Shown piece by piece: positions 1-11,236 of a stretch of DNA of 15,216 nt (positions within the stretch are counted from its first letter, which is position 1; each line of letters starts with the position of its first letter). Where the stretch lies: the NCBI GenBank assembly GCA_964592405.1, contig CAZQBY010000002.1, positions 1 to 15,216 on the forward strand, written 5' to 3'. The DNA is from an uncultured archaeon (GTDB lineage Archaea; Altiarchaeota; Altiarchaeia; JAFGQM01). The position numbers were made by a program, and so were the translations under genes. The notes below the pieces were generated by a model, which ran no database searches, was not told where the DNA came from, and saw only the letters and a list, made by a program, of their open reading frames with translations.

Positions 1-35
1 ATGATTTTTCTCCCCCCTGGATATAATATCCAACC

Positions 36-743
36 ATGAGGGAATTCTTCTACAAGTACAAGGACACTCGCTTCCACAATCTTGGCGCGGGGACCAAGTC
101 TGTGGCGGTCGCGGCGATAGTGGCCATGTCCCTGCTCCTTGATGAGCCTCCCGCCCTGCTGGCTATCTTCGCCCTGACTGCCGCGATAGTCCTGGAGGCC
201 CGAATCGCGCGCGGGTGGCTGTTCTACATGAGGGTGGCTGCATGGATAGGTGGGATGATATTCCTGCTGAACCTCCTGCTTAACCAGGGCGGAGAGACTG
301 TTCTCTTCCGCGCGCATCTGGGGCTCCCCCTCTTCCAGAGCCTGCGGATAACCCTGGAGTCGGTCCTTTTCGGGCTGGTCATGGCCCTGCGGATGGCGGC
401 GGTGATGTCGGCCTTTGCCATATTCTCGCTCACCGTCTCGCCAGACCAGCTCATGCAGCTCATGAGGAGGCTCAGGGTGCCCGAAAAGTCCGTTTTTCTG
501 ACATCCCTCGCGACGCGCTTTGTGCCATCTCTGCTGGAGGATATGGAGACGCTCAGCCAGGTGCAGAGGGCGCGCGGCGCAAAGCTCAGAGGCATAAGGG
601 GCAAGGGGCCGATAATCATTCCCCTGCTTTCCAACTCGCTGGAGCGGAGCGTGAGCGTGGCCGAGGCCATGGAGGCGCGCGGGTTCGGCTCGGGAAGCGG
701 CGCTGGATTGGGAAATGAGCGAAACTGTGGGGACAGAGAATGA
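36..743 (+). CDS. ecfT: ECF transporter transmembrane component T (CbiQ/EcfT family)
   Basis: Hydrophobic N-terminal helices, then RFVP and the two conserved X-Arg-Gly motifs (QRARG, AMEARG); ATGA overlap with the downstream ABC ATPase. Confidence 0.93.
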   Translation: MREFFYKYKDTRFHNLGAGTKSVAVAAIVAMSLLLDEPPALLAIFALTAAIVLEARIARGWLFYMRVAAWIGGMIFLLNLLLNQGGETVLFRAHLGLPLFQSLRITLESVLFGLVMALRMAAVMSAFAIFSLTVSPDQLMQLMRRLRVPEKSVFLTSLATRFVPSLLEDMETLSQVQRARGAKLRGIRGKGPIIIPLLSNSLERSVSVAEAMEARGFGSGSGAGLGNERNCGDRE

Positions 744-2056
744 TAAAAATAAGGAATCTGAGCTTCACCTACGCCGGCGGGCAAAAGGCGCTGGACGGCA
801 TAGACCTGGACATCAAGAGCGGCGAGTTTGTCCTGCTGACCGGCCCCTCCGGCTCCGGAAAGAGCACTCTGGTCCGGTGCCTGAATGGTCTTATCCCAAG
901 CTTCCATGGTGGAAGGCTGGAGGGCTCAGTCATGGTGGGAGGCAGGAACGCCCTGAGCACACCGCCCAAGGACATGGCGCGCCTCGTTGGCATGCTCTTC
1001 CAGAACCCCGAGGACATGTTCGTCACCGAGACCGTGGAGAGCGAGATAGCCTTCACGCCTTTAACACTCGGATATCAGAGTGTTGGTGAAATGGTCAAAA
1101 GCATAATGGCTGAGTTGGGCATAGAGCGCCTCGTCGGAAGGAGCCTTCGCGAGCTGTCCGGCGGCGAGAAGCAGCTGGTGGCCCTGGCATCGGTGATGGC
1201 GACCGGGCCGGAGGTTCTGGTCCTGGACGAGCCGCTGTCGGAGGTGGACCACTCATCGGCCGGGAGGCTGATGGGCCTGCTCAGGAAGCTAAACGAAGGC
1301 GGCAGGACAATAATCCTCATAGAGCAGCGGACGGAGAAGGTACACGCCCACGCCACAAGGGAAATCTCATTGGAGGGCGGCAAAATCGCATACGATGGCA
1401 AACCGAGAAAGAACGGCGAGCCGGTCAGGAGTGAGAGGATAGAGACAGGCCAAGTGCTAGTTGACCTGGAGAGCGTCTCTTTCTCTTATGAAAACAACCG
1501 CGTCTTCAAATCCTTCTCCCAGAGCTTCCGCGAGGGCGAGCTGGTAGTCGTGGAGGGCCCCAACGGCTCGGGAAAGACCACACTCCTGAAACTCATAATG
1601 GGCCTGCTGCGCGCGGATGAAGGCAAAATCAACGTGGGCGGGCTGGAGAATCCCTCCGTGGAGCAAACCGCGGGAGCGGTGGGTTATGTATTCCAGAACC
1701 CAGACAATCATCTCTTCGCGGAAACGGTCAAGGAGGAAATCGAATTCATATTAAAAAATACAAACAGGGAGGGCGATGTTGACAAAATCCTAGACGACTT
1801 CGGGATTTTGCACTGCAAAAAAGCCTATCCGCGCTATCTTTCTGGCGGCGAGAAGCAGAGGGTGGCCCTAGCCTCAATATTGGTCGCCGAGCCGAAGGTC
1901 CTCCTGCTGGATGAGCCGACGAGGGGGATGGATCACGCGCTGAAGAAGAAGCTGGCCGAATACCTGTTACATTACATCAGGAAAGGCAACCTTGTTATAA
2001 TGGCGACGCACGACGACTACATGGCGAAGTGCGCCACGAGGAGGCTCAGGCTATGA
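740..2056 (+). CDS. ECF transporter ATP-binding protein with two fused ABC domains (EcfA-A')
   Basis: Two Walker A motifs (GPSGSGKS, GPNGSGKT), two FQNP Q-loops typical of EcfA/CbiO, two LSGGEKQ signatures, two LDEP Walker B motifs. Confidence 0.95.
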   Translation: MIKIRNLSFTYAGGQKALDGIDLDIKSGEFVLLTGPSGSGKSTLVRCLNGLIPSFHGGRLEGSVMVGGRNALSTPPKDMARLVGMLFQNPEDMFVTETVESEIAFTPLTLGYQSVGEMVKSIMAELGIERLVGRSLRELSGGEKQLVALASVMATGPEVLVLDEPLSEVDHSSAGRLMGLLRKLNEGGRTIILIEQRTEKVHAHATREISLEGGKIAYDGKPRKNGEPVRSERIETGQVLVDLESVSFSYENNRVFKSFSQSFREGELVVVEGPNGSGKTTLLKLIMGLLRADEGKINVGGLENPSVEQTAGAVGYVFQNPDNHLFAETVKEEIEFILKNTNREGDVDKILDDFGILHCKKAYPRYLSGGEKQRVALASILVAEPKVLLLDEPTRGMDHALKKKLAEYLLHYIRKGNLVIMATHDDYMAKCATRRLRL

Positions 2057-2814
2057 GATGGGGGCTTTTGATAATCGGGCTCCTGCTGCTCTCCATGCCG
2101 CCCATAGCTGCTGCCCCGTGGCTGATGCCACACTGGGGCCTCCTCTCGCTGGCCTTCGCAGGCATGGTAAGCCTAGCGATGTTCCTGGAGTTCGGGCAAA
2201 GGGCAGGCTCTTCCAGGGAGATCTCCCTGACGGCGATGCTGGGGGCGATATCGGCCGTGACACGAATCCCATTCGGCGCTTTCCCCAGCCTGCAGCCCTC
2301 GACATTCATAGTGGCGGTCAGCGGCTACGCCTTTGGCCCGGTCTCCGGCTTCATGGTCGGCGCGCTGACCGCGCTCATCTCCAATTTTTTCCTTGGCATG
2401 GGGCCCTGGACGCTCTACCAGATGCTCGCATGGGGATCGGTCGGCGCCTTCTTTTCGGCCCTGGCATGGCTCGGTCGGTGCATCTCCAATCTTCGGTTCT
2501 CAGCTTCCGGTCTCCGGTCTCAGGCTCCCCCCCAGAGGACCAAAGACCGAGGACTCAAGACAGGAAGGCTCACCATAGCCATCCTGGCTTTCTTCGGCTT
2601 CCTCTGGGGCTATGTGTTCGGCTTCATAATGAACCTCTGGTATCTGACCGCATTCGGCTTCCCGCTTACGCTCCAGTCTGTTGTAGCGCTCCAGGCGGTT
2701 AGCTTCTGGATGGACACGCTGCATGGCTTGGGCAATGCGGCCTTCTTCCTGATATTCGGGGGACGGATGATAAGGGTTCTGGAGAGGTTCAGGCGCAGGT
2801 TCAGGCGCTTTTAG
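2053..2814 (+). CDS. ECF transporter S component, CbrT (cobalamin)-like
   Basis: Start moved to ATG 2053 (ATGA overlap with the ATPase stop). Multi-TM protein with P-x-x-QP, ISNFFLGMGPWTLYQM and D-x-x-H-x-x-GN motifs that I recall from CbrT-type S components; substrate is inferred. Confidence 0.8.
   Translation: MRWGLLIIGLLLLSMPPIAAAPWLMPHWGLLSLAFAGMVSLAMFLEFGQRAGSSREISLTAMLGAISAVTRIPFGAFPSLQPSTFIVAVSGYAFGPVSGFMVGALTALISNFFLGMGPWTLYQMLAWGSVGAFFSALAWLGRCISNLRFSASGLRSQAPPQRTKDRGLKTGRLTIAILAFFGFLWGYVFGFIMNLWYLTAFGFPLTLQSVVALQAVSFWMDTLHGLGNAAFFLIFGGRMIRVLERFRRRFRRF
2483..2567. repeat. Inverted arrays of degenerate 7-nt repeats inside the S-component CDS
   Basis: Left arm TCTCCAA TCTTCGG TTCTCAG CTTCCGG TCTCCGG TCTCAGG (2483-2524); C-rich spacer; right arm CAGAGGA CCAAAGA CCGAGGA CTCAAGA CAGGAAG (2533-2567), approximately reverse complementary units. 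Confidence 0.75.
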
Positions 2815-2837
2815 TTCTTTTACTATCAATATAACCA

Positions 2838-3596
2838 ATGGCAGGGAAAAGGAAAAAGCCTCCAAAACACCCGGCTTCGGTCATGGAGCGGAAGACGGCC
2901 CGCGCCCTTGGCAGGGGTGAGAGGCACCCCCGGCTCGTGGAGAACGGCGTCCGGCCCAGATACAGGCGCATGCGCGACAGGCAGCTCAGGGGGATGATAC
3001 CTGATAAAAGAGCGAGGAACGAAGTCATCAGCCGCGAGATAGGCCTGCTTATGGAGAAAAGAAGGGAGCAGAGGGCCCTTGGGGAGGCGCGGGCGATAGA
3101 CCCGCTCACCGGGCTGCACACCCGCTCCCATTTCATGGACGAGTTGAGGAGGTACAAAAGAATCGCCTTGGAGGCCAGCAAGACAAGGGAGCGAAGGGAG
3201 AAGCGTCCGGCCAGACCCTTCGGCGTGATTTACCTAGACCTGAACAGATTCAAGGAGCTGAACGACGAAAAGGGCCACGCCGCCGGAGACAAGGCCCTTC
3301 AGGATGCCGCCGAGGCGATAAGGGGCAACGTCAGGGCCGACGACTTGGCTGGCAGGCTAGGGGGAGACGAGTTCGCCCTGCTGGTGCCCGGGGATGTCGA
3401 TGAGATGAAAAGGGTCGCCCGGAGGATACATAGTGCCCTGGCCGACAGGGGGCTCAGCGCCAGCGTGGGGATAGCGCAGTTTGATCCCAAAAGATGCAGA
3501 GACCCGCTCAAGGCCGCTGACAGGGCGATGTACAAGGCCAAGGCATGGTACAGGGAGGGCGCGGTCATGCCCACAGCCATCCACGGCAGAAAATAG
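2838..3596 (+). CDS. GGDEF-domain protein (putative diguanylate cyclase) with Arg/Lys-rich N-terminus
   Basis: DPLTGL, YLDLNRFKELNDEKGHAAGD, RADD I-site five residues before RLGGDEF, SASVGIA, ADRAMYKAK. Confidence 0.95.
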   Translation: MAGKRKKPPKHPASVMERKTARALGRGERHPRLVENGVRPRYRRMRDRQLRGMIPDKRARNEVISREIGLLMEKRREQRALGEARAIDPLTGLHTRSHFMDELRRYKRIALEASKTRERREKRPARPFGVIYLDLNRFKELNDEKGHAAGDKALQDAAEAIRGNVRADDLAGRLGGDEFALLVPGDVDEMKRVARRIHSALADRGLSASVGIAQFDPKRCRDPLKAADRAMYKAKAWYREGAVMPTAIHGRK

Positions 3597-3609
3597 CCTT
3601 TTTTCCTGC
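3586..3609 (+). terminator. Possible terminator after the GGDEF gene
   Basis: T6 tract at 3599-3604 just after the TAG stop; weak hairpin GCAGAAAA/TTTT(C)CTGC. Confidence 0.35.
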
Positions 3610-3631
3610 GAATCTCAAAATAACCCCTACT

Positions 3632-4339
3632 ATGGATTTAGCCAAGAAAGCTGCTGCTGAAAAGGCCTGTGAACTGGTAGAGGATGGCATGATTATTGGT
3701 CTGGGAACAGGTTCTACTGCAGAGTATGCCATCAGAAGGCTGGGACAGATGGTCAGGGACGGATTGCGCATAAAGGGAGTGCCCACATCTAGGCATACAC
3801 AGAGGCTTGCAGAGATTGTCAAGATACCAATCATACCCTATGAAGAGTTCCTTGCCAAGGAGTGGGATAAGGATTCGGGTGCATCAATAGACATAGACAT
3901 AGATGGTGCAGACTGTGTAGATCCGGAGTTCCGCCTGATAAAGGGGGGCGGGGGAGCACATACTAGGGAGAAGAATATAGCCACTGCCTCCAGACTCTTC
4001 TGCTGTATTGTTGACAACTCAAAGATTGTGCCAAAACTGGTAGGAAGCTTCCCGATACCGGTGGAGGTCATACCTGAATACTACCGTGAGGTCATGGCAA
4101 GACTGAAGAAATTTGGTGAGGTCAAGCTGCGTGAAACTGGAGGAAAGGTTTTTATAACTGATAATTCTAACTACGTGGTTGATGTTTCTCCGACCGTCGG
4201 CGAGCCGGACAGGCTTGAAGTCGACATCAATGAAATCCCAGGTGTTGTAGACAACGGGTTTTTCACCAAAAGAAGGCCTGAAATGGTCTTTGTCGGTTAC
4301 CCGGACGGTTCGGTGAAGGTCCTAGAACGTGGCGAGTAG
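3632..4339 (+). CDS. rpiA: Ribose-5-phosphate isomerase A
   Basis: GLGTGSTA, DGAD, LIKGGGGAHTREK motifs; start placed at ATG 3632 (MDLAKKAAA), which removes the overlap with the GGDEF gene. Confidence 0.96.
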   Translation: MDLAKKAAAEKACELVEDGMIIGLGTGSTAEYAIRRLGQMVRDGLRIKGVPTSRHTQRLAEIVKIPIIPYEEFLAKEWDKDSGASIDIDIDGADCVDPEFRLIKGGGGAHTREKNIATASRLFCCIVDNSKIVPKLVGSFPIPVEVIPEYYREVMARLKKFGEVKLRETGGKVFITDNSNYVVDVSPTVGEPDRLEVDINEIPGVVDNGFFTKRRPEMVFVGYPDGSVKVLERGE

Positions 4340-4349
4340 CTGATCTGCA

Positions 4350-4862
4350 ATGGCAGAAAAATCCAGTAAGAAGCCGGAGGATACAAAGGTAGAGAGTAAG
4401 AAGAAGAGCATACATAAGGTTAGAATACTTGCGACTGATATAGACAGTTCCAAGAAGCTTATAACCGGTATTTCATGTGTGAAGGGAGTGGGTCACAATA
4501 TGGCCAATGTCCTGGTGGTGCGGCTTGGTTTGGACCGCAGAAAGAGGCTGGTGGACCTATCTGAGGAGGAGATTGAAAGGATTGAAAATGCAATCTCTGA
4601 TCCGGCGGCCCTTGGGATACCCGGCTGGATGTTTAACAGAAGAAGGGATCATGACACTGGCAGGGACATCCATCTTAACACTTCTGATCTGACATTTGCC
4701 GTGAGGGAGGATATCAACCGCATGGGTGAAATAAAGTCCTACAAGGGTCTGCGACATACAAAAGGCCTGAAGGTCCGCGGCCAGAGGACCGCTTCAACAG
4801 GCAGGGGTAGCAGAGTGGTTGGTGTCCAGAGAAAGAAGCAACAACCAGGCAAGTCTAAGTAA
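4350..4862 (+). CDS. rps13: 30S ribosomal protein uS13 (archaeal S13)
   Basis: KGVG, IPGWMFNRRRD, YKGLRH..GLKVRGQRT motifs; first gene of the archaeal alpha-like operon. Confidence 0.97.
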   Translation: MAEKSSKKPEDTKVESKKKSIHKVRILATDIDSSKKLITGISCVKGVGHNMANVLVVRLGLDRRKRLVDLSEEEIERIENAISDPAALGIPGWMFNRRRDHDTGRDIHLNTSDLTFAVREDINRMGEIKSYKGLRHTKGLKVRGQRTASTGRGSRVVGVQRKKQQPGKSK

Positions 4863-4863
4863 G

Positions 4864-5505
4864 ATGGGTCAACCAAAAAAACAGCGAAGGAGATACAGTA
4901 CTCCAAAACACATGTTTAAAGGCAGGGAGGGGGAGGCTGAACTTATCAAGGCTTATGGTCTCAAGAACGCAAGGGAGCTCTGGAAGGCCAAGAGCGAGGT
5001 TGCACGCATAAGGGCTCTTGCCAGAAAGCTGCTTGCAAAGCCGGATGAGGCAGTCATCTCTGATCTCATGGGCCGGCTGAAGAGACTGGGGCTCCTTAAG
5101 AAGGACGCAAAACTTGAAGATGTTCTGGCGATAACCCTTGAGGACATACTGGACCGGAGATTGCAGACCGTAGTCTACAAGAGGGGCCTAACAACAACCA
5201 TCAAGCAGGCAAGGCAGGAGATAGTTCATGGGCATATCTCGGTTGGTGGAGGTCGTATGACATCTCCGGGTCATCTGACAACACTGGAAGAGGGCGAGAC
5301 TGTGGATTTCTATGCCGGCTCGCCACTTCGGAATCCGGAGCATCCGGTAAGAAGAATTGAGAAGAAGGCCTCTTCGGAGAAAGCCGATAAGAAGATAAAT
5401 ACTGAGGATATCAAAACATCCAATAGCGGAGCAGACACCTCTGGTGAAGAGGCGGAACCGGGTAAGAGTGTTCTGAGGGAAGTTTCTGAAACCAATAATG
5501 ACTAA
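4864..5505 (+). CDS. rps4: 30S ribosomal protein uS4 (archaeal S4) with C-terminal extension
   Basis: Start ATG 4864 (MGQPKKQRRRYSTP), YGLKN.RELWK, RRLQT, ARQ.IVHGHI. Confidence 0.97.
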   Translation: MGQPKKQRRRYSTPKHMFKGREGEAELIKAYGLKNARELWKAKSEVARIRALARKLLAKPDEAVISDLMGRLKRLGLLKKDAKLEDVLAITLEDILDRRLQTVVYKRGLTTTIKQARQEIVHGHISVGGGRMTSPGHLTTLEEGETVDFYAGSPLRNPEHPVRRIEKKASSEKADKKINTEDIKTSNSGADTSGEEAEPGKSVLREVSETNND

Positions 5506-6178
5506 AAAAACCAAGGAAAGGAGCAAAGAGGAAAAAAAGGTGGAAGAGAGTGAAAAGTCTGGAAAAAAAGAGGTTTCTGAAGGCTCCAACAAAAAAACCT
5601 CCAAGAAGGTAAGTGGAGTTAAAGAGAAGACCGGAGAAAAGAAACCGGCCAGAGAGGAAGCTCCAGAACAGACAGCCCCGGGTATCACAAAAGAGGATAA
5701 GAAAGACAATATAAGCAGGAAGCTTGTAGAGGAGGTCAAAAAGGGAATAATTGAGGAAAAGAAGCCATCGCTTCAGGCTACTCCAAAGAAATCCGAATTT
5801 GTTGCAGTAGTCCATGTACATGCCTCTAAGAACAATACCATAGTTACAGTAACTGATCTCTCTGGATCAGAGACTCTGGGAAGAGCCAGTGGGGGTATGG
5901 TGTCCAAGACCGGCAGGGAGGAGAAATCCCCATTTGCCGGGGGACAGATAGCAAAGAGGCTGGCAACCATACTGAAGGATAACGGCGTGCAGAAGGTAGA
6001 TGTCCTTTTGAGGGGAAAGGGAGGACACAGCGGACAAAAAAGTCCGGGGAGGGCTGCATCGACAGTCATAAAGATACTCGCCCGGTCCGGAATCAGGATC
6101 AGGCGGATAGAAGATGTAACTCCAATAGCCCATGGTGGATGTAAGCCACCAGGCGGAAAGAGGGGAAGGAGGGTATGA
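5498..6178 (+). CDS. rps11: 30S ribosomal protein uS11 (archaeal S11) with ~100-aa N-terminal K/E-rich extension
   Basis: HASKNNTIVTVTDLSGSET, SGGMV, IEDVTP, GGKRGRRV C-terminus; 8-nt overlap with rps4. Confidence 0.96.
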   Translation: MTKKTKERSKEEKKVEESEKSGKKEVSEGSNKKTSKKVSGVKEKTGEKKPAREEAPEQTAPGITKEDKKDNISRKLVEEVKKGIIEEKKPSLQATPKKSEFVAVVHVHASKNNTIVTVTDLSGSETLGRASGGMVSKTGREEKSPFAGGQIAKRLATILKDNGVQKVDVLLRGKGGHSGQKSPGRAASTVIKILARSGIRIRRIEDVTPIAHGGCKPPGGKRGRRV

Positions 6179-6952: not shown

Positions 6953-7040
6953 GCGGGGGTGCCGGAGTCTGGTCAAACGGGCACGGTTGAGGGCCGTGTG
7001 GCTTAGGCCTGCGCGCGTTCGAATCGCGTCCCCCGCACCA
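6953..7040 (+). tRNA. tRNA-Leu(GAG), intronless, CCA encoded
   Basis: Acceptor GCGGGGG/CCCCCGC, anticodon arm CACGG-TTGAGGG-CCGTG, long variable arm, T arm GCGCG-TTCGAAT-CGCGT, ends ACCA; usual position between rpo3 and rpl18e. Confidence 0.97.
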
Positions 7041-7081
7041 GAACAGACAGGATAATCGACTTGGACTTCATCAGCTTACAA

Positions 7082-7438
7082 ATGGAAGGAAAGGGATATG
7101 AAGATCCAAACCGGTTGGATCTTATAGAATACCTCAGAAGAGAGGGTAGGGGACAGCCCCTGTGGATCTGCCTAGCGGAAGATCTGGGCAAAAGCAGAAA
7201 GAACCGCGCTCAGGTCAATTTGGAAAAGATAAACAGACTGACTAGGCCCAGAGACACTGTTGTAGTTGCAGGAAAGGTGCTGGGCGATGGAATCCTGGAC
7301 CATGAGGTTACCATAGCCTGCTTCAGGATCTCGGAACAGGCAAGGAAGAAAGTGGAACAAGCAAACGGCAGTATAATAACAATAAAAGACCTTCTTGAAA
7401 AGAACCCAAAGGGCACAAAGGTCAAAATATTAAGATGA
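7082..7438 (+). CDS. rpl18e: 50S ribosomal protein eL18
   Basis: VNLEKINR, VVVAGKVLGDG, KNPKG motifs; ATG 7082 preferred over TTG 7061. Confidence 0.95.
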   Translation: MEGKGYEDPNRLDLIEYLRREGRGQPLWICLAEDLGKSRKNRAQVNLEKINRLTRPRDTVVVAGKVLGDGILDHEVTIACFRISEQARKKVEQANGSIITIKDLLEKNPKGTKVKILR

Positions 7439-7896
7439 CTGAAAGGAAGATAGTGGATGCCGAAGGATGTACTATGGGAAGATTGGCAGCTTATGCCGCC
7501 AAGGAGGCCCTTAAGGGTAATAGAATCATCATAATCAACGCAGAAAAAGCCGTTATCTCAGGCAGAAAAGACCACATATTCCGGGATTACAAAAAGAGAT
7601 ATGATGCCAAGAGCAAAACAAATCCAAAACGATATGGACCCAAGAGACCAAAAAATCCGGATCGGTTCCTGCGACGTGTCATAAGGGGTATGTTGCCATG
7701 GGACAAACCAGGGGGAAGAAAGGCCTTCAGGCATGTTTTGGTTTATATGGGAAGACCTGAGAAAGAAATCATTAGGAGGGAGGGAATAGAGCTTTCCAAG
7801 ATGCAGCTAGTGGACAATTCAGAGCTGAAAAGGCATTATGATTATTTTATAACTCTGGGAGAATTATGCGCCTATCTGGGGGGAAGAAATGAATAA
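7435..7896 (+). CDS. rpl13: 50S ribosomal protein uL13
   Basis: VDAEG..MGRLAA, INAEKAVISG, GPKRP..PD, IRGMLP; ATGA overlap with rpl18e. Confidence 0.97.
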   Translation: MTERKIVDAEGCTMGRLAAYAAKEALKGNRIIIINAEKAVISGRKDHIFRDYKKRYDAKSKTNPKRYGPKRPKNPDRFLRRVIRGMLPWDKPGGRKAFRHVLVYMGRPEKEIIRREGIELSKMQLVDNSELKRHYDYFITLGELCAYLGGRNE

Positions 7897-8629: not shown

Positions 8630-8704
8630 GGGACCGTGGGGTAGCCAGGACGATCCTCTCGGCTTGGGGTGCCGGTGACCCGAGTTCAAATCTCGGCGGT
8701 CCCA
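8630..8704 (+). tRNA. tRNA-Pro(GGG), intronless, CCA not encoded
   Basis: Acceptor GGGACCG/CGGTCCC, anticodon arm TCGGC-TTGGGGT-GCCGG, T arm CCGAG-TTCAAAT-CTCGG, discriminator A followed by TCA; usual position between rpoN and rpoK. Confidence 0.96.
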
Positions 8705-8742: not shown

Positions 8743-8928
8743 ATGGAAAAACTCACCAAATATGAGAAGGCAAGAATCATTGGGGCTAGGGCACTCCAGA
8801 TTTCGCTAGGGGCTCCGGTATTGCTAAAAATTCCGAAAAATATTATAGATCCTCTCGAAATAGCTAGGATGGAGCTGGAACAGGATGTTATACCCATAGT
8901 TGTAAAGAGAGAGCAAGATGGTCAATAA
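8743..8928 (+). CDS. rpoK: DNA-directed RNA polymerase subunit Rpo6 (K)
   Basis: [28 protein letters not shown]; SD-like GAGAGGT about 8 nt before ATG 8743. Confidence 0.97.
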
Positions 8929-9820
8929 AGAGAAAAAAGTGGAGACAGAAGGAGCAGCAGAAACGTCCCCGGACGTTGTAGCGCAAGAAACAGTGCCAGA
9001 GGGACCTGTATTGGAGACTGAGGAAGAGGATACAGGACTGGCAGAGAGTAAGGACTTGGATGAACCAGCAGAAGAACGGGGGGAGGAGCTAAGGGAAGAA
9101 GCAAAAGAAAAATCCGGGGAAGATGGAATGACTGAGACCGAGGATTATATATCTTCGGCTGAGGGAAAAGAGCTTTTGGTGGATCCAGAAACCTATTTGA
9201 AGAATGGAACCCACATAGGTCTGACCTATCGGACAGGCAATATGCGAAAATTCATTTATAAGGTCAGAAGTGATCGTCTAAGTATATTCAGCCTCAATGC
9301 AATAGATGAACGAATACGCCTAGCGGCAAAGATGCTGGCCAAGTTTGAGAAAGACGATGTCTTGGTTATAGGTTCAAGGGCATATGCCAGAAGACCTGTT
9401 AGAAAGTTTGCAGAGAACACGGGCGTAAAATATGTTTCCGGCCGGTTCAGACCCGGTTCTTTCACAAATCCGCAAGAGAAGAACTTTAGAGAGCCCAAGA
9501 TTATTTTGGTTGCTGATCCAATAGCTGACAAACAGGCAGTAAGAGAGGCTGCCAAGGTCGGTATACCAGTTATAGGAGTGTGTGACTCCAATGCACTGAC
9601 TCGTAATATAGACCTTATTATCCCTCTAAACAACAAGGGAAAACAGTCCATAGCCTTGATGTTCTGGTTACTTACAAAACAGTATCTTGTTGAACGCGGT
9701 GAGATGAAACCAAAGGACAAACTTAAGGATTCACTAGAGGATTACATCTCACAGATACAGCCAACAAAGCGTATTGAGGCCCTTATCAAATCCAAACGCA
9801 AGGAAAGATTCAAAGGATGA
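8918..9820 (+). CDS. rps2: 30S ribosomal protein uS2 with acidic N-terminal extension
   Basis: [33 protein letters not shown]; alternative start at Met71 (9128) cannot be excluded. Confidence 0.96.
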
Positions 9821-10657: not shown

Positions 10658-10816
10658 CATAGATTTATACATAGACAAATTTAATAACATAGACAAATAA
10701 CATAGACAACATACATATCATAGTTATATGTGTGGTATGTATTGTTATATGAGTTATATTTTAGTTGTATCAAATAACAAACATTGTATCAAACAACAAA
10801 CCAAAAACAAACCAAA
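10658..10816. repeat. AT-rich intergenic region with several direct-repeat families
   Basis: ACATAGACAA x3 (10669, 10687, 10700); GTTATAT x3 (10723, 10744, 10753); TTGTATCAAAYAACAAAC x2 (10765, 10784); AACAAACCAAA x2 (10795, 10806). Confidence 0.85.
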
Positions 10817-10837
10817 TTCAGAAAAAGGGGGATAAAA

Positions 10838-11236
10838 ATGGGCATTACAGGATACAAAATAGATAAAATAGAAGGAAAAGTGGAAAAACGGGATATAGAA
10901 AATGTAGATGTGAAAGAGGGTTTCTCCATTGGCGACGTCAAGAAGAAGAACGCCCAGATGTTGGAAGTCTCATGGACCTTCAACACAGACTACAAGAATA
11001 TTGGAAAGCTTGCCCTTGAAGGCACACTGACCTATTTTACCGATAACCTTGCCGATAAGGTTGAGGAAAAGGAGATAAAGGGTAAGAAGGGTCTTGTTCT
11101 AAAGGGGGATGCGCTTAGAGAAGTTTCCAACTTTGTCCTCCGCAGGGGCATAATAGAGTCCATTATACTTGCAAAGACTCTTCAGCTGCCGGCACCAATA
11201 CAGCTTCCCTCGGTAAAGATTAAGAGCGAGAAGTAA
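10838..11236 (+). CDS. Conserved archaeal hypothetical protein, probable SecB-like fold
   Basis: SD GGGGGAT precedes ATG 10838; alternating beta-strand patterns, then helices and C-terminal LQLPAPIQLP reminiscent of SecB-like proteins. CDS is well supported, fold is inferred. Confidence 0.7.
   Translation: MGITGYKIDKIEGKVEKRDIENVDVKEGFSIGDVKKKNAQMLEVSWTFNTDYKNIGKLALEGTLTYFTDNLADKVEEKEIKGKKGLVLKGDALREVSNFVLRRGIIESIILAKTLQLPAPIQLPSVKIKSEK

Follow-up and report, generated by a model that had tools for sequence, protein, structure and literature searches.

The window analysed here comprises bases 1 to 15,216 of contig C2 in a 1.13-Mb archaeal genome bin recovered from hydrothermal vents (22 contigs; 87.5% complete, 0.35% contamination). 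The bin (G000) belongs to a family of eight genomes (G000 to G007), of which G000 to G002 form group g1, G003 falls in g2, and G004 and G007 fall in g3 and g4, respectively. Near the start of the window, a gene for a GGDEF-domain protein, a putative stand-alone diguanylate cyclase, lies between three genes for an energy-coupling factor (ECF) transporter and rpiA, the first gene of an archaeal housekeeping cluster (Table 1). The cluster continues with genes for S13, S4, S11, RpoD, L18e, L13, S9, S2, Memo, an archaeal-type threonyl-tRNA synthetase (ThrRS), mevalonate kinase, and type 2 isopentenyl diphosphate isomerase (IDI-2); Pfam families support rpiA, Memo, mevalonate kinase, and IDI-2, and ThrRS is recognised by its domains. 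An original prediction, made from the sequence alone, had placed the GGDEF gene 35 nucleotides (nt) upstream of this cluster, and that is the gap we find before the rpiA ATG. We conclude that the gene is real, chromosomal, and archaeal. Judging from its sequence features, the gene probably encodes a diguanylate cyclase that is active and subject to product inhibition, with a stalk helix behind an N-terminal extension that is basic and specific to this lineage.

Table 1. Features of the GGDEF locus in the window. AF2, AlphaFold2; pLDDT, predicted local distance difference test score; aa, amino acids; the 74 sequences are the GGDEF protein and its 73 nearest database relatives.
Feature	Position (nt)	Strand	Evidence or remarks
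EcfT	36-743	+	Pfam CbiQ
Fused EcfAA'	740-2056	+	Pfam ABC_tran, two matches
EcfS (S component)	2029 or 2053-2814	+	Pfam ECF_trnsprt; NCBIfam
GGDEF protein, coding sequence (putative stand-alone diguanylate cyclase)	2838-3596	+	ATG start, TAG stop; 252 aa
Residues 1-38, basic Lys/Arg-rich N-terminal extension	2838-2951	+	AF2 pLDDT 50-58
Residues 39-84, presumed stalk/dimerisation element	2952-3089	+	AF2 helices 39-50 and 57-84; pLDDT 84-96
Residues 86-236, GGDEF catalytic domain	3093-3545	+	Pfam; TIGR00254; AF2 pLDDT mostly 95-98
DPLTGL, residues 88-93	3099-3116	+	Read from sequence
Asp134 in YLDL	3237-3239	+	Invariant in 74 sequences
Asp151 in GHAAGD, base-specificity position	3288-3290	+	≥90% conserved in 74 sequences
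R166-A-D-D169, RxxD inhibitory-site motif	3333-3344	+	Read from sequence; R166 and D169 ≥90% conserved in 74 sequences
G175-G-D-E-F179, active-site loop	3360-3374	+	G176, E178, and F179 invariant, G175 and D177 ≥90% conserved in 74 sequences
GGDEF-rpiA spacer, 35 nt	3597-3631	+	T6 run and motif CTCAAAATAACCCC; nearly invariant in the three g1 species
rpiA (ribose-5-phosphate isomerase A)	3632-4339	+	Pfam Rib_5-P_isom_A, E = 7.9e-49; start codon conserved in g1

The protein matched the Pfam GGDEF profile (PF00990) over residues 86 to 236 (E = 1.3e-29; 103.4 bits, far above the cut-off of 23.8), which is the hidden Markov model check that had been proposed for it, and also matched NCBIfam TIGR00254 (104.8 bits; cut-off, 37.4). 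This open reading frame (ORF) is the sole GGDEF match in the genome. Two database gene callers start the protein at Met16, which gives 237 residues. We prefer the ATG at 2838 because residues 1 to 15 show conservation at the protein level across three species, an indel there being in frame.

All of the motifs listed in the original prediction (DPLTGL, YLD, LND..GH..GD, GGDEF, and RxxD) are present at the places it gave. In the 74-sequence alignment, Lys139 and Asn142, both located in FKELND, are invariant, as are Arg173 and K235. By analogy with PleD, we take D134, on strand beta-1, to be a metal ligand and K139 and R173 to contact the phosphates or transition state. The RxxD motif is the allosteric site of product inhibition in these enzymes (the I-site), and here, as expected of an I-site, it ends five residues before GGDEF. 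The motif is conserved in G001, in G002, and in P0004, a database relative described below, and the catalytic residues are all intact in the alignment of the three g1 species and P0004.

The position that sets base specificity holds Asp in canonical, GTP-specific enzymes and Ser or Thr in the Hypr enzymes, which make cyclic GMP-AMP (cGAMP) (PMC6456294). According to the same paper, enzymes that naturally have Ser or Thr there invariably combine it with GGDE[F/Y], and a Ser/GGEEF combination is inactive, as the “Goldilocks” model predicts. The present protein has Asp151 at this position and does not show the Hypr combination of Ser/Thr with GGDE[F/Y]; because Asp occurs there together with GGDEF, the enzyme reads as canonical rather than Hypr.

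Structure prediction agrees with this assignment. The AF2 model has a mean pLDDT of 87.2, and a Foldseek search against the Protein Data Bank (PDB) returned 111 matches at E ≤ 0.001; among the matches listed, all are GGDEF-domain proteins and nearly all are diguanylate cyclases. Model confidence and structural matches together identify a GGDEF fold (palm-like, with a beta-alpha-alpha-beta-beta-alpha-beta core), which aligns with isolated GGDEF domains such as 4urs, 5euh, and 3i5b at target-normalised template modelling (TM) scores of 0.76 to 0.83. The top PDB matches by sequence are active cyclases: 5m3c, SadC, TpbB, WspR, and PleD. Motifs, profile match, conservation, model, and Foldseek results thus bear out the description of the cyclase as apparently intact, since every sequence feature of an active I-site diguanylate cyclase is present. 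The predicted stalk helix (residues 57 to 84) and the likeness to SiaD and to a GCN4-WspR fusion suggest that the protein may form a homodimer. A complex prediction with two copies of residues 40 to 252, for which controls were not run, scored 0.07 against a mark of 0.42 and is evidence neither way.

All three g1 species conserve the N-terminal extension, and it can still be recognised in G003 and P0004. Residues 1 to 38 matched no Pfam family, and the top values of an Atlas feature search with them (0.77 to 0.78) were under chance level. A word-seeded search of 5.8 billion proteins yielded four close relatives, namely, the protein itself, those of G002 and G001, and a 257-residue protein with 45% identity from a 1.7-kb contig. 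Beyond these four, the matches drop to E values of ∼1e-21 and are domain-only matches to GGDEF proteins labelled bacterial or unlabelled. When 1.84 billion representatives were searched exhaustively with a profile (524,082 GGDEF hits), three of the matches listed span the profile from position ≤16 to position ≥248 (P0002, P0004, and P0241, the G003 form), and the remaining 147 listed begin at position ≥21, mostly at 55 to 90. Because so few representatives reach the start of the profile, a family delimited by this N-terminal region is, as judged by sequence, tiny.

The order EcfT-EcfAA'-EcfS-GGDEF-rpiA recurs in three more metagenome-assembled genomes (MAGs) of the family. In G002, the GGDEF locus lies mid-contig and is followed by rpiA, S13, S4, S11, and RpoD. 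The locus has the same order in G003, which belongs to a different genus, and also in G001, where the contig stops 47 codons into rpiA. Logan contigs from two metagenome runs bridge the GGDEF/rpiA junction with 0 mismatches and no branch: a 2,461-base contig covers 1532 to 3992 (run X2, record 12), and a 456-base contig covers 3413 to 3868 (run X1, record 5). Depth is alike on either side of the junction, at ∼4 to 6. These contigs were made by a different assembler. Since one of the runs may be the source of the bin, we use them to check the join but do not count them as a separate occurrence. Three hydrothermal vent metagenomes (0.76 to 0.97 of its words) and one marine metagenome contain the stretch, and among the seven runs listed there was no RNA run that contains it.

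GC content steps down exactly at the GGDEF/rpiA boundary, from ∼0.60 to ∼0.47. At third codon positions (GC3), the three ECF genes and the GGDEF gene reach 0.74 to 0.78, compared with 0.42 to 0.55 in the next 13 genes, and so exceed the genome's 95th percentile of 0.716 (mean, 0.561; standard deviation, 0.078). This step could be taken for the edge of a bacterial contaminant or chimeric join spanning block 1 to 3600, a suspicion to which the block's place at contig position 1 and the bacterial affiliation of the nearest named GGDEF-domain relatives after the four close homologues add. The identical junction in three separate assemblies (G001, G002, and G003), together with the junction-crossing contigs of the two runs, argues otherwise, as do the ECF genes of the block, which throughout the family are orthologs in synteny with rpiA, also in genomes in which GC is even. 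In G001 and G002, GC3 is 0.70 to 0.94 over the whole locus, ribosomal genes included, whereas in G000 it is high in the ECF-GGDEF block only. Within G000 itself, GC reaches ≥0.57 in 19 of 681 long ORFs spread over 10 contigs (among them C1, C3, C4, C7, C10, C12, C13, and C18), and the estimated contamination of the genome is only the 0.35% given above. Synonymous divergence (dS) between G000 and its two congeners is 0.40 to 1.15 in the block and ranges from 1.4 to saturated in rpiA, S13, S4, S11, and RpoD. The G000 lineage may thus have a lower GC content than its congeners and may have imported the block by recombination from a high-GC congener. The step is real, yet it is no mark of a bacterial insert, because the native ECF genes share it. 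Contamination or misassembly of block 1 to 3600, which had been named at the outset as the finding that would overturn the prediction, is contradicted by the synteny and the junction-crossing contigs.

In G004 and G007, the ECF genes adjoin rpiA without an intervening GGDEF gene, at gaps of 25 nt and 457 nt, respectively, and GC is even across both loci. We considered and rejected co-transfer of the ECF genes with GGDEF from Bacteria, since they adjoin rpiA in these two GGDEF-less genomes. The 457-nt spacer of G007 (L022:1461-1918) holds an unrelated ORF of ∼108 residues with a hydrophobic start (a small membrane ORF), and a tblastn search of the spacer at E ≤ 10 found no GGDEF remnant. We treat the ECF genes as context only; their adjacency need not be functional, and we claim no functional link to the GGDEF gene.

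The spacer between the GGDEF gene and rpiA is almost unchanged in three species whose synonymous sites differ, and its T6 run is placed after the GGDEF stop codon. A motif like that of the spacer, TCAATATAACC, stands directly 5' of the GGDEF ATG. The shared form TCAAnATAACC immediately precedes the start codons of GGDEF (2826 to 2837), of rpiA (3615 to 3628), and of rpiA in G004 (L024, ∼3160 to 3180). Genome-wide in G000, 8 of 81 motif hits have an ATG ≤15 nt after them that opens an ORF of ≥60 codons. As intergenic signals, these elements are suggestive only.

The GGDEF gene is under purifying selection. The ratio of nonsynonymous to synonymous divergence (dN/dS) is 0.177 against G002 (dN, 0.124; dS, 0.70) and 0.203 against G001, and these two comparisons with congeners show that selection maintains the gene. 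It is present in all three g1 genomes and in G003 and is absent at the locus from G004 and G007. The contig of G006 ends at rpiA, where its GGDEF state is not visible, and G005, whose rpiA lies elsewhere, was excluded from the locus tree. That midpoint-rooted tree of six neighbouring proteins in seven genomes groups G007, which lacks GGDEF, with G003 and G006 (support, 96/95). Because of this grouping, at least two gain or loss events are needed at the locus. We envisage that in some members of the family the gene entered the interval separating the ECF genes from rpiA and was then kept under purifying selection. A tree of the GGDEF domain (124 of 128 rows, with four degenerate rows from another family, f5, left out; midpoint root; 51 of 121 inner branches open) sets the five rows of this family alone on one side of the root, with 79% support in the Shimodaira-Hasegawa-like approximate likelihood ratio test (SH-aLRT), and no bacterial donor can be named from it.

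Across the phylum, GGDEF was detected in 11 of 61 species genomes and is therefore not unique to this one: it occurs in 4 of 8 genomes of this family (the source bin included), 7 of 21 of f5, and none of the 32 in the other seven families. The f5 genes comprise GGDEF-HD-GYP fusions, one GAF-GGDEF protein, and degenerate forms; at loci L006, L007, L008, and L016, they encode proteins of 434 to 548 residues whose degenerate GGDEF domains carry large inserts. The HD_5 (HD-GYP) domain was found in 4 of the 61 genomes, all of them in f5. Two of the fusions (G019 L002:1240-2628 and G055 L014:1237-2565) resemble the protein described here in their short helical N-terminus and RxxD motif, have GGEEF, and differ in carrying their own HD-GYP phosphodiesterase domain. 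They share 27 to 37% identity with it (60 to 73 bits), which ranks them 122 to 124 of 126, below many bacterial and metagenomic proteins, and they fall elsewhere in the domain tree. A common origin with these other GGDEF genes of the phylum, which we considered, is supported by neither the similarity ranks nor the tree, which is weak at depth. Based on the lower similarity rank and the different tree position, the f5 genes appear to be a separate lineage. The phylum-wide counts, with two unrelated GGDEF lineages present, point to repeated gain or loss rather than to a single set inherited from ancient times.

In the mechanism that we favour, two chains would pair via the stalk, bringing two GTP-loaded GGDEF domains face to face. 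Mg2+ would be bound by Asp134 together with the acidic residues in the GGDEF loop, Asn142 and Asp151 would read the guanine, and Lys139 and Arg173 would handle the phosphates. The product would, by analogy with the family, be 3',5'-cyclic di-GMP (c-di-GMP), and by rebinding at R166xxD169, it would limit its own synthesis. Because the protein has no sensor domain, control would come from its expression, from the I-site, and perhaps from a partner on the basic N-terminal arm. There is precedent for such activity: archaeal GGDEF proteins from MAGs, short ones included, raised c-di-GMP reporters in Escherichia coli and Salmonella, an effect that was lost in GGAAF mutants (PMC13725321, sections 2.12 to 2.14).

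Several observations weigh against an active c-di-GMP synthase. Known c-di-GMP modules are recognised by a phosphodiesterase (EAL or HD-GYP) and a receptor (PilZ, MshEN, or riboswitch), and the scan for partner domains that the original prediction had called for came back empty in this 87.5%-complete genome, with 0 EAL, 0 HD_5, 0 PilZ, and 0 MshEN domains, as did a search for the class II c-di-GMP riboswitch (RF01786). These results do not allow a complete signalling circuit to be drawn, although absence from an incomplete genome is not proof. None of the eight genomes of the family has EAL or HD-GYP, and PilZ and EAL are each found in 0 of the 61 phylum genomes. No SiaC-family protein was found either, but that search and the one for the class I riboswitch (RF01051) matched no control genome, and both are uninformative. 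Stand-alone GGDEF domains can moreover be poorly active without an activating partner, as in the cases of SiaD/SiaC and WspR.

The ortholog in G003 (L011:10130-11011) adds to these doubts. It shares only 30 to 34% identity with its counterparts, whereas the neighbouring genes share 49 to 73%, and it has GGEEF, Thr at the specificity position (GHDAGT), and GDDG in place of RxxD. The Goldilocks model predicts Ser/GGEEF, a pairing related to the Thr/GGEEF of G003, to be inactive (PMC6456294), and the G003 copy may be inactive or changed in function. Because this ortholog has lost RxxD and combines Thr with GGEEF, catalysis may not be what the whole family conserves. Some archaeal GGDEF proteins gave no phenotype when tested (PMC13725321).

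The alternative that survives best, although we consider it unlikely, is that the protein is a regulator or scaffold with a GGDEF fold that acts through its basic N-terminus, or that it makes another product (cGAMP, cyclic di-AMP [c-di-AMP], or a linear dinucleotide). It would account for our failure to detect any known effector or phosphodiesterase, whether in this genome or elsewhere in the family, and the strongly basic first 38 residues, which are conserved in the family and have no relatives elsewhere, would be suited to contact with nucleic acid or a partner. In G003, the ortholog remains an open frame despite lacking the I-site and specificity residues, and phenotypes independent of catalysis have been described for archaeal GGDEF proteins (PMC13725321, Discussion 3.1). 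The intact catalytic residues of g1 and P0004, under a dN/dS of ∼0.2, would nonetheless be hard to explain if catalysis were dispensable. A different product is disfavoured by the combination of Asp151 with GGDEF, which is GTP specific, Ser or Thr being the mark of promiscuous enzymes (PMC6456294, as above). No DAC (c-di-AMP synthase) domain was found in the 87.5%-complete genome by a search that was positive in three of four archaeal control genomes (Methanocaldococcus jannaschii, Haloferax volcanii, and Methanosarcina acetivorans), and GGDEF is thus the sole cyclic-dinucleotide synthase domain of the two searched. No defence-system model matched (0 PADLOC families), which also counts against this alternative.

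It is distinctly improbable, in our estimation, that the enzyme is active but that its nucleotide is exported, or acts on a host, partner, or competitor cell, instead of serving as an internal messenger. The small genome (1.13 Mb at 87% completeness), the absence of internal receptor and phosphodiesterase domains from our searches, and the position of the gene directly after a membrane transporter operon would fit such a role. ECF transporters are importers, however, and this one is present at the locus without GGDEF in G004 and G007; c-di-GMP receptors of unfamiliar type are also common, ComFB being a recent example. No sign of a partner organism was found, none having been sought. The original prediction had suggested influence on a partner cell or, alternatively, surface attachment of the archaeon itself, and our results neither favour nor contradict these roles. 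Contamination or a chimeric join at block 1 to 3600, with a GGDEF gene that is not archaeal, is hardly credible in view of the shared junction.

Returning to the reading of an active, self-limiting diguanylate cyclase, we tentatively raise a further possibility, which we hold to be rather doubtful: that the gene belongs to a minimal circuit of new design, in which a sensor-less cyclase would reach a partner or nucleic acid through its N-terminal arm, receptors would belong to none of the known classes (PilZ, MshEN, degenerate GGDEF/EAL, or riboswitch), and turnover would proceed without EAL or HD-GYP. If this were true, the family would be a tractable 1.1-Mb test case for archaeal c-di-GMP effectors.

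The ThrRS of the host has as its nearest named relatives a “Candidatus Altiarchaeota archaeon” protein (67% identity) and then proteins of Woesearchaeota and Aenigmarchaeota (56 to 59%). A split pheT has been called characteristic of Altiarchaeales (Bird et al. 2016, PMC4975002). Here, the B3_4 and core domains of pheT (G000:C4:8164-9426) lie in one 539-residue frame, and a single frame of ∼540 residues is found in all eight family genomes. Because pheT is unsplit throughout the family, the Altiarchaeota label, resting on one ThrRS relative, is doubtful.

Other features of the window and of related loci were also recorded. The ribosomal proteins S11 (5498 to 6178) and S2 (8918 to 9820) have long Lys/Glu-rich N-terminal extensions of ∼95 and ∼80 residues, respectively, the former being matched by a similar extension in S11 of G002, and S4 (4864 to 5505) ends in an acidic, Lys-rich tail. 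Genes for tRNA-Leu(GAG) (6953 to 7040) and tRNA-Pro(GGG) (8630 to 8704) lie within the ribosomal-protein cluster. At the tRNA-Leu gene (place 6968), the summed contig depth rises to 27 to 41 with loose ends, as expected for sequence that other organisms share. A 150-residue ORF (10784 to 11236), flanked by the Memo-like gene and ThrRS, has no Pfam or NCBIfam match; its listed TTG start is doubtful, and there is an internal Met 18 residues in. Upstream of the ECF genes, G001 (L009:1018-1881 and 7043-7879) and G003 (L011:2091-2927, 4163-5002, and 4933-5835) encode paralogs of ∼280 residues with the shared N-terminus LAEPTVRKLYDSKLRLAILDAL. Judged by eye, these look like winged-helix regulators.

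According to reviews published as late as 2023, neither c-di-GMP nor its enzymes were known in Archaea (PMC10249747 and PMC10086821), and the use of this signal by Archaea remained an open question until 2026. Sidorov et al. (Mol Microbiol, September 2026; PMC13725321) have since described GGDEF proteins in three archaeal isolates and 20 proteins from MAGs, mainly of DPANN and cluster II, with in vivo cyclase activity for several of them. The original prediction of an undescribed system has therefore been overtaken: the general finding of archaeal GGDEF cyclases is already in print, and the family described here is a further example. Our literature search found no paper linking Altiarchaeota and GGDEF; the string “Altiarchae” is absent from the main text of the Sidorov paper, in which the 20 MAG proteins are listed in the supplements only. 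The same paper remarks on the frequency of short GGDEF-only forms among archaeal MAGs and their rarity in Bacteria, tests the role of RxxD on an archaeal protein (section 2.14), and names as next questions the co-occurrence of cyclases and phosphodiesterases, the receptors, and whether the genes were inherited or transferred (section 3.3).

This locus, which by itself does not change that picture, is a clean natural case for such open questions about archaeal c-di-GMP. At least four species of one family retain this single gene at an unchanging site beside housekeeping genes and under purifying selection, and an orphan cyclase in a very small genome makes the question of archaeal c-di-GMP receptors testable.

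Among bacterial systems, the protein that matches best in structure over the full length is the Pseudomonas aeruginosa cyclase SiaD (PDB 7e6g), a stalk-plus-GGDEF enzyme activated by SiaC (Foldseek E = 1.2e-14 over 259 columns; TM score, 0.59). The sequence match covers residues 23 to 201 of the archaeal protein, including part of its N-terminal helices, at 25% aligned identity. The two are alike in size (a 276-residue PDB chain compared with 252 residues here), and neither has a sensor domain. SiaD has no counterpart to the basic residues 1 to 38, and because the archaeal protein scores 99 bits against the NCBIfam NF038266 equivalog cut-off of 290, it is not a SiaD ortholog. With PleD, WspR, SadC, and TpbB/YfiN, it shares the domain, the catalytic residues, and the RxxD spacing (E = 3e-11 to 3e-17; domain TM scores, 0.7 to 0.8). 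It differs from these cyclases in having no receiver, PAS, GAF, or membrane sensor module, in an extra Arg/Lys-rich insert of 8 to 10 residues before strand beta-1 (residues ∼113 to 126), and in its archaeal setting, in which the known pathway partners were not found.

The closest parallels are the archaeal cyclases of Sidorov et al. As in the present case, these lie on contigs where the flanking genes are clearly archaeal, occur once per genome, consist of a short N-terminal stretch followed by GGDEF only, conserve the catalytic and RxxD motifs, and have no Ser at the cGAMP position. In RJQ22058.1, a short protein that was active in that study, the catalytic Asp is residue 256, compared with 177 here, and the two are thus different proteins. 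As far as our searches show, what is new in the family described here is the synteny in four species, the dN/dS values, the presence and absence of the gene at one locus, and the phylum-wide counts of GGDEF, HD-GYP, EAL, and PilZ.

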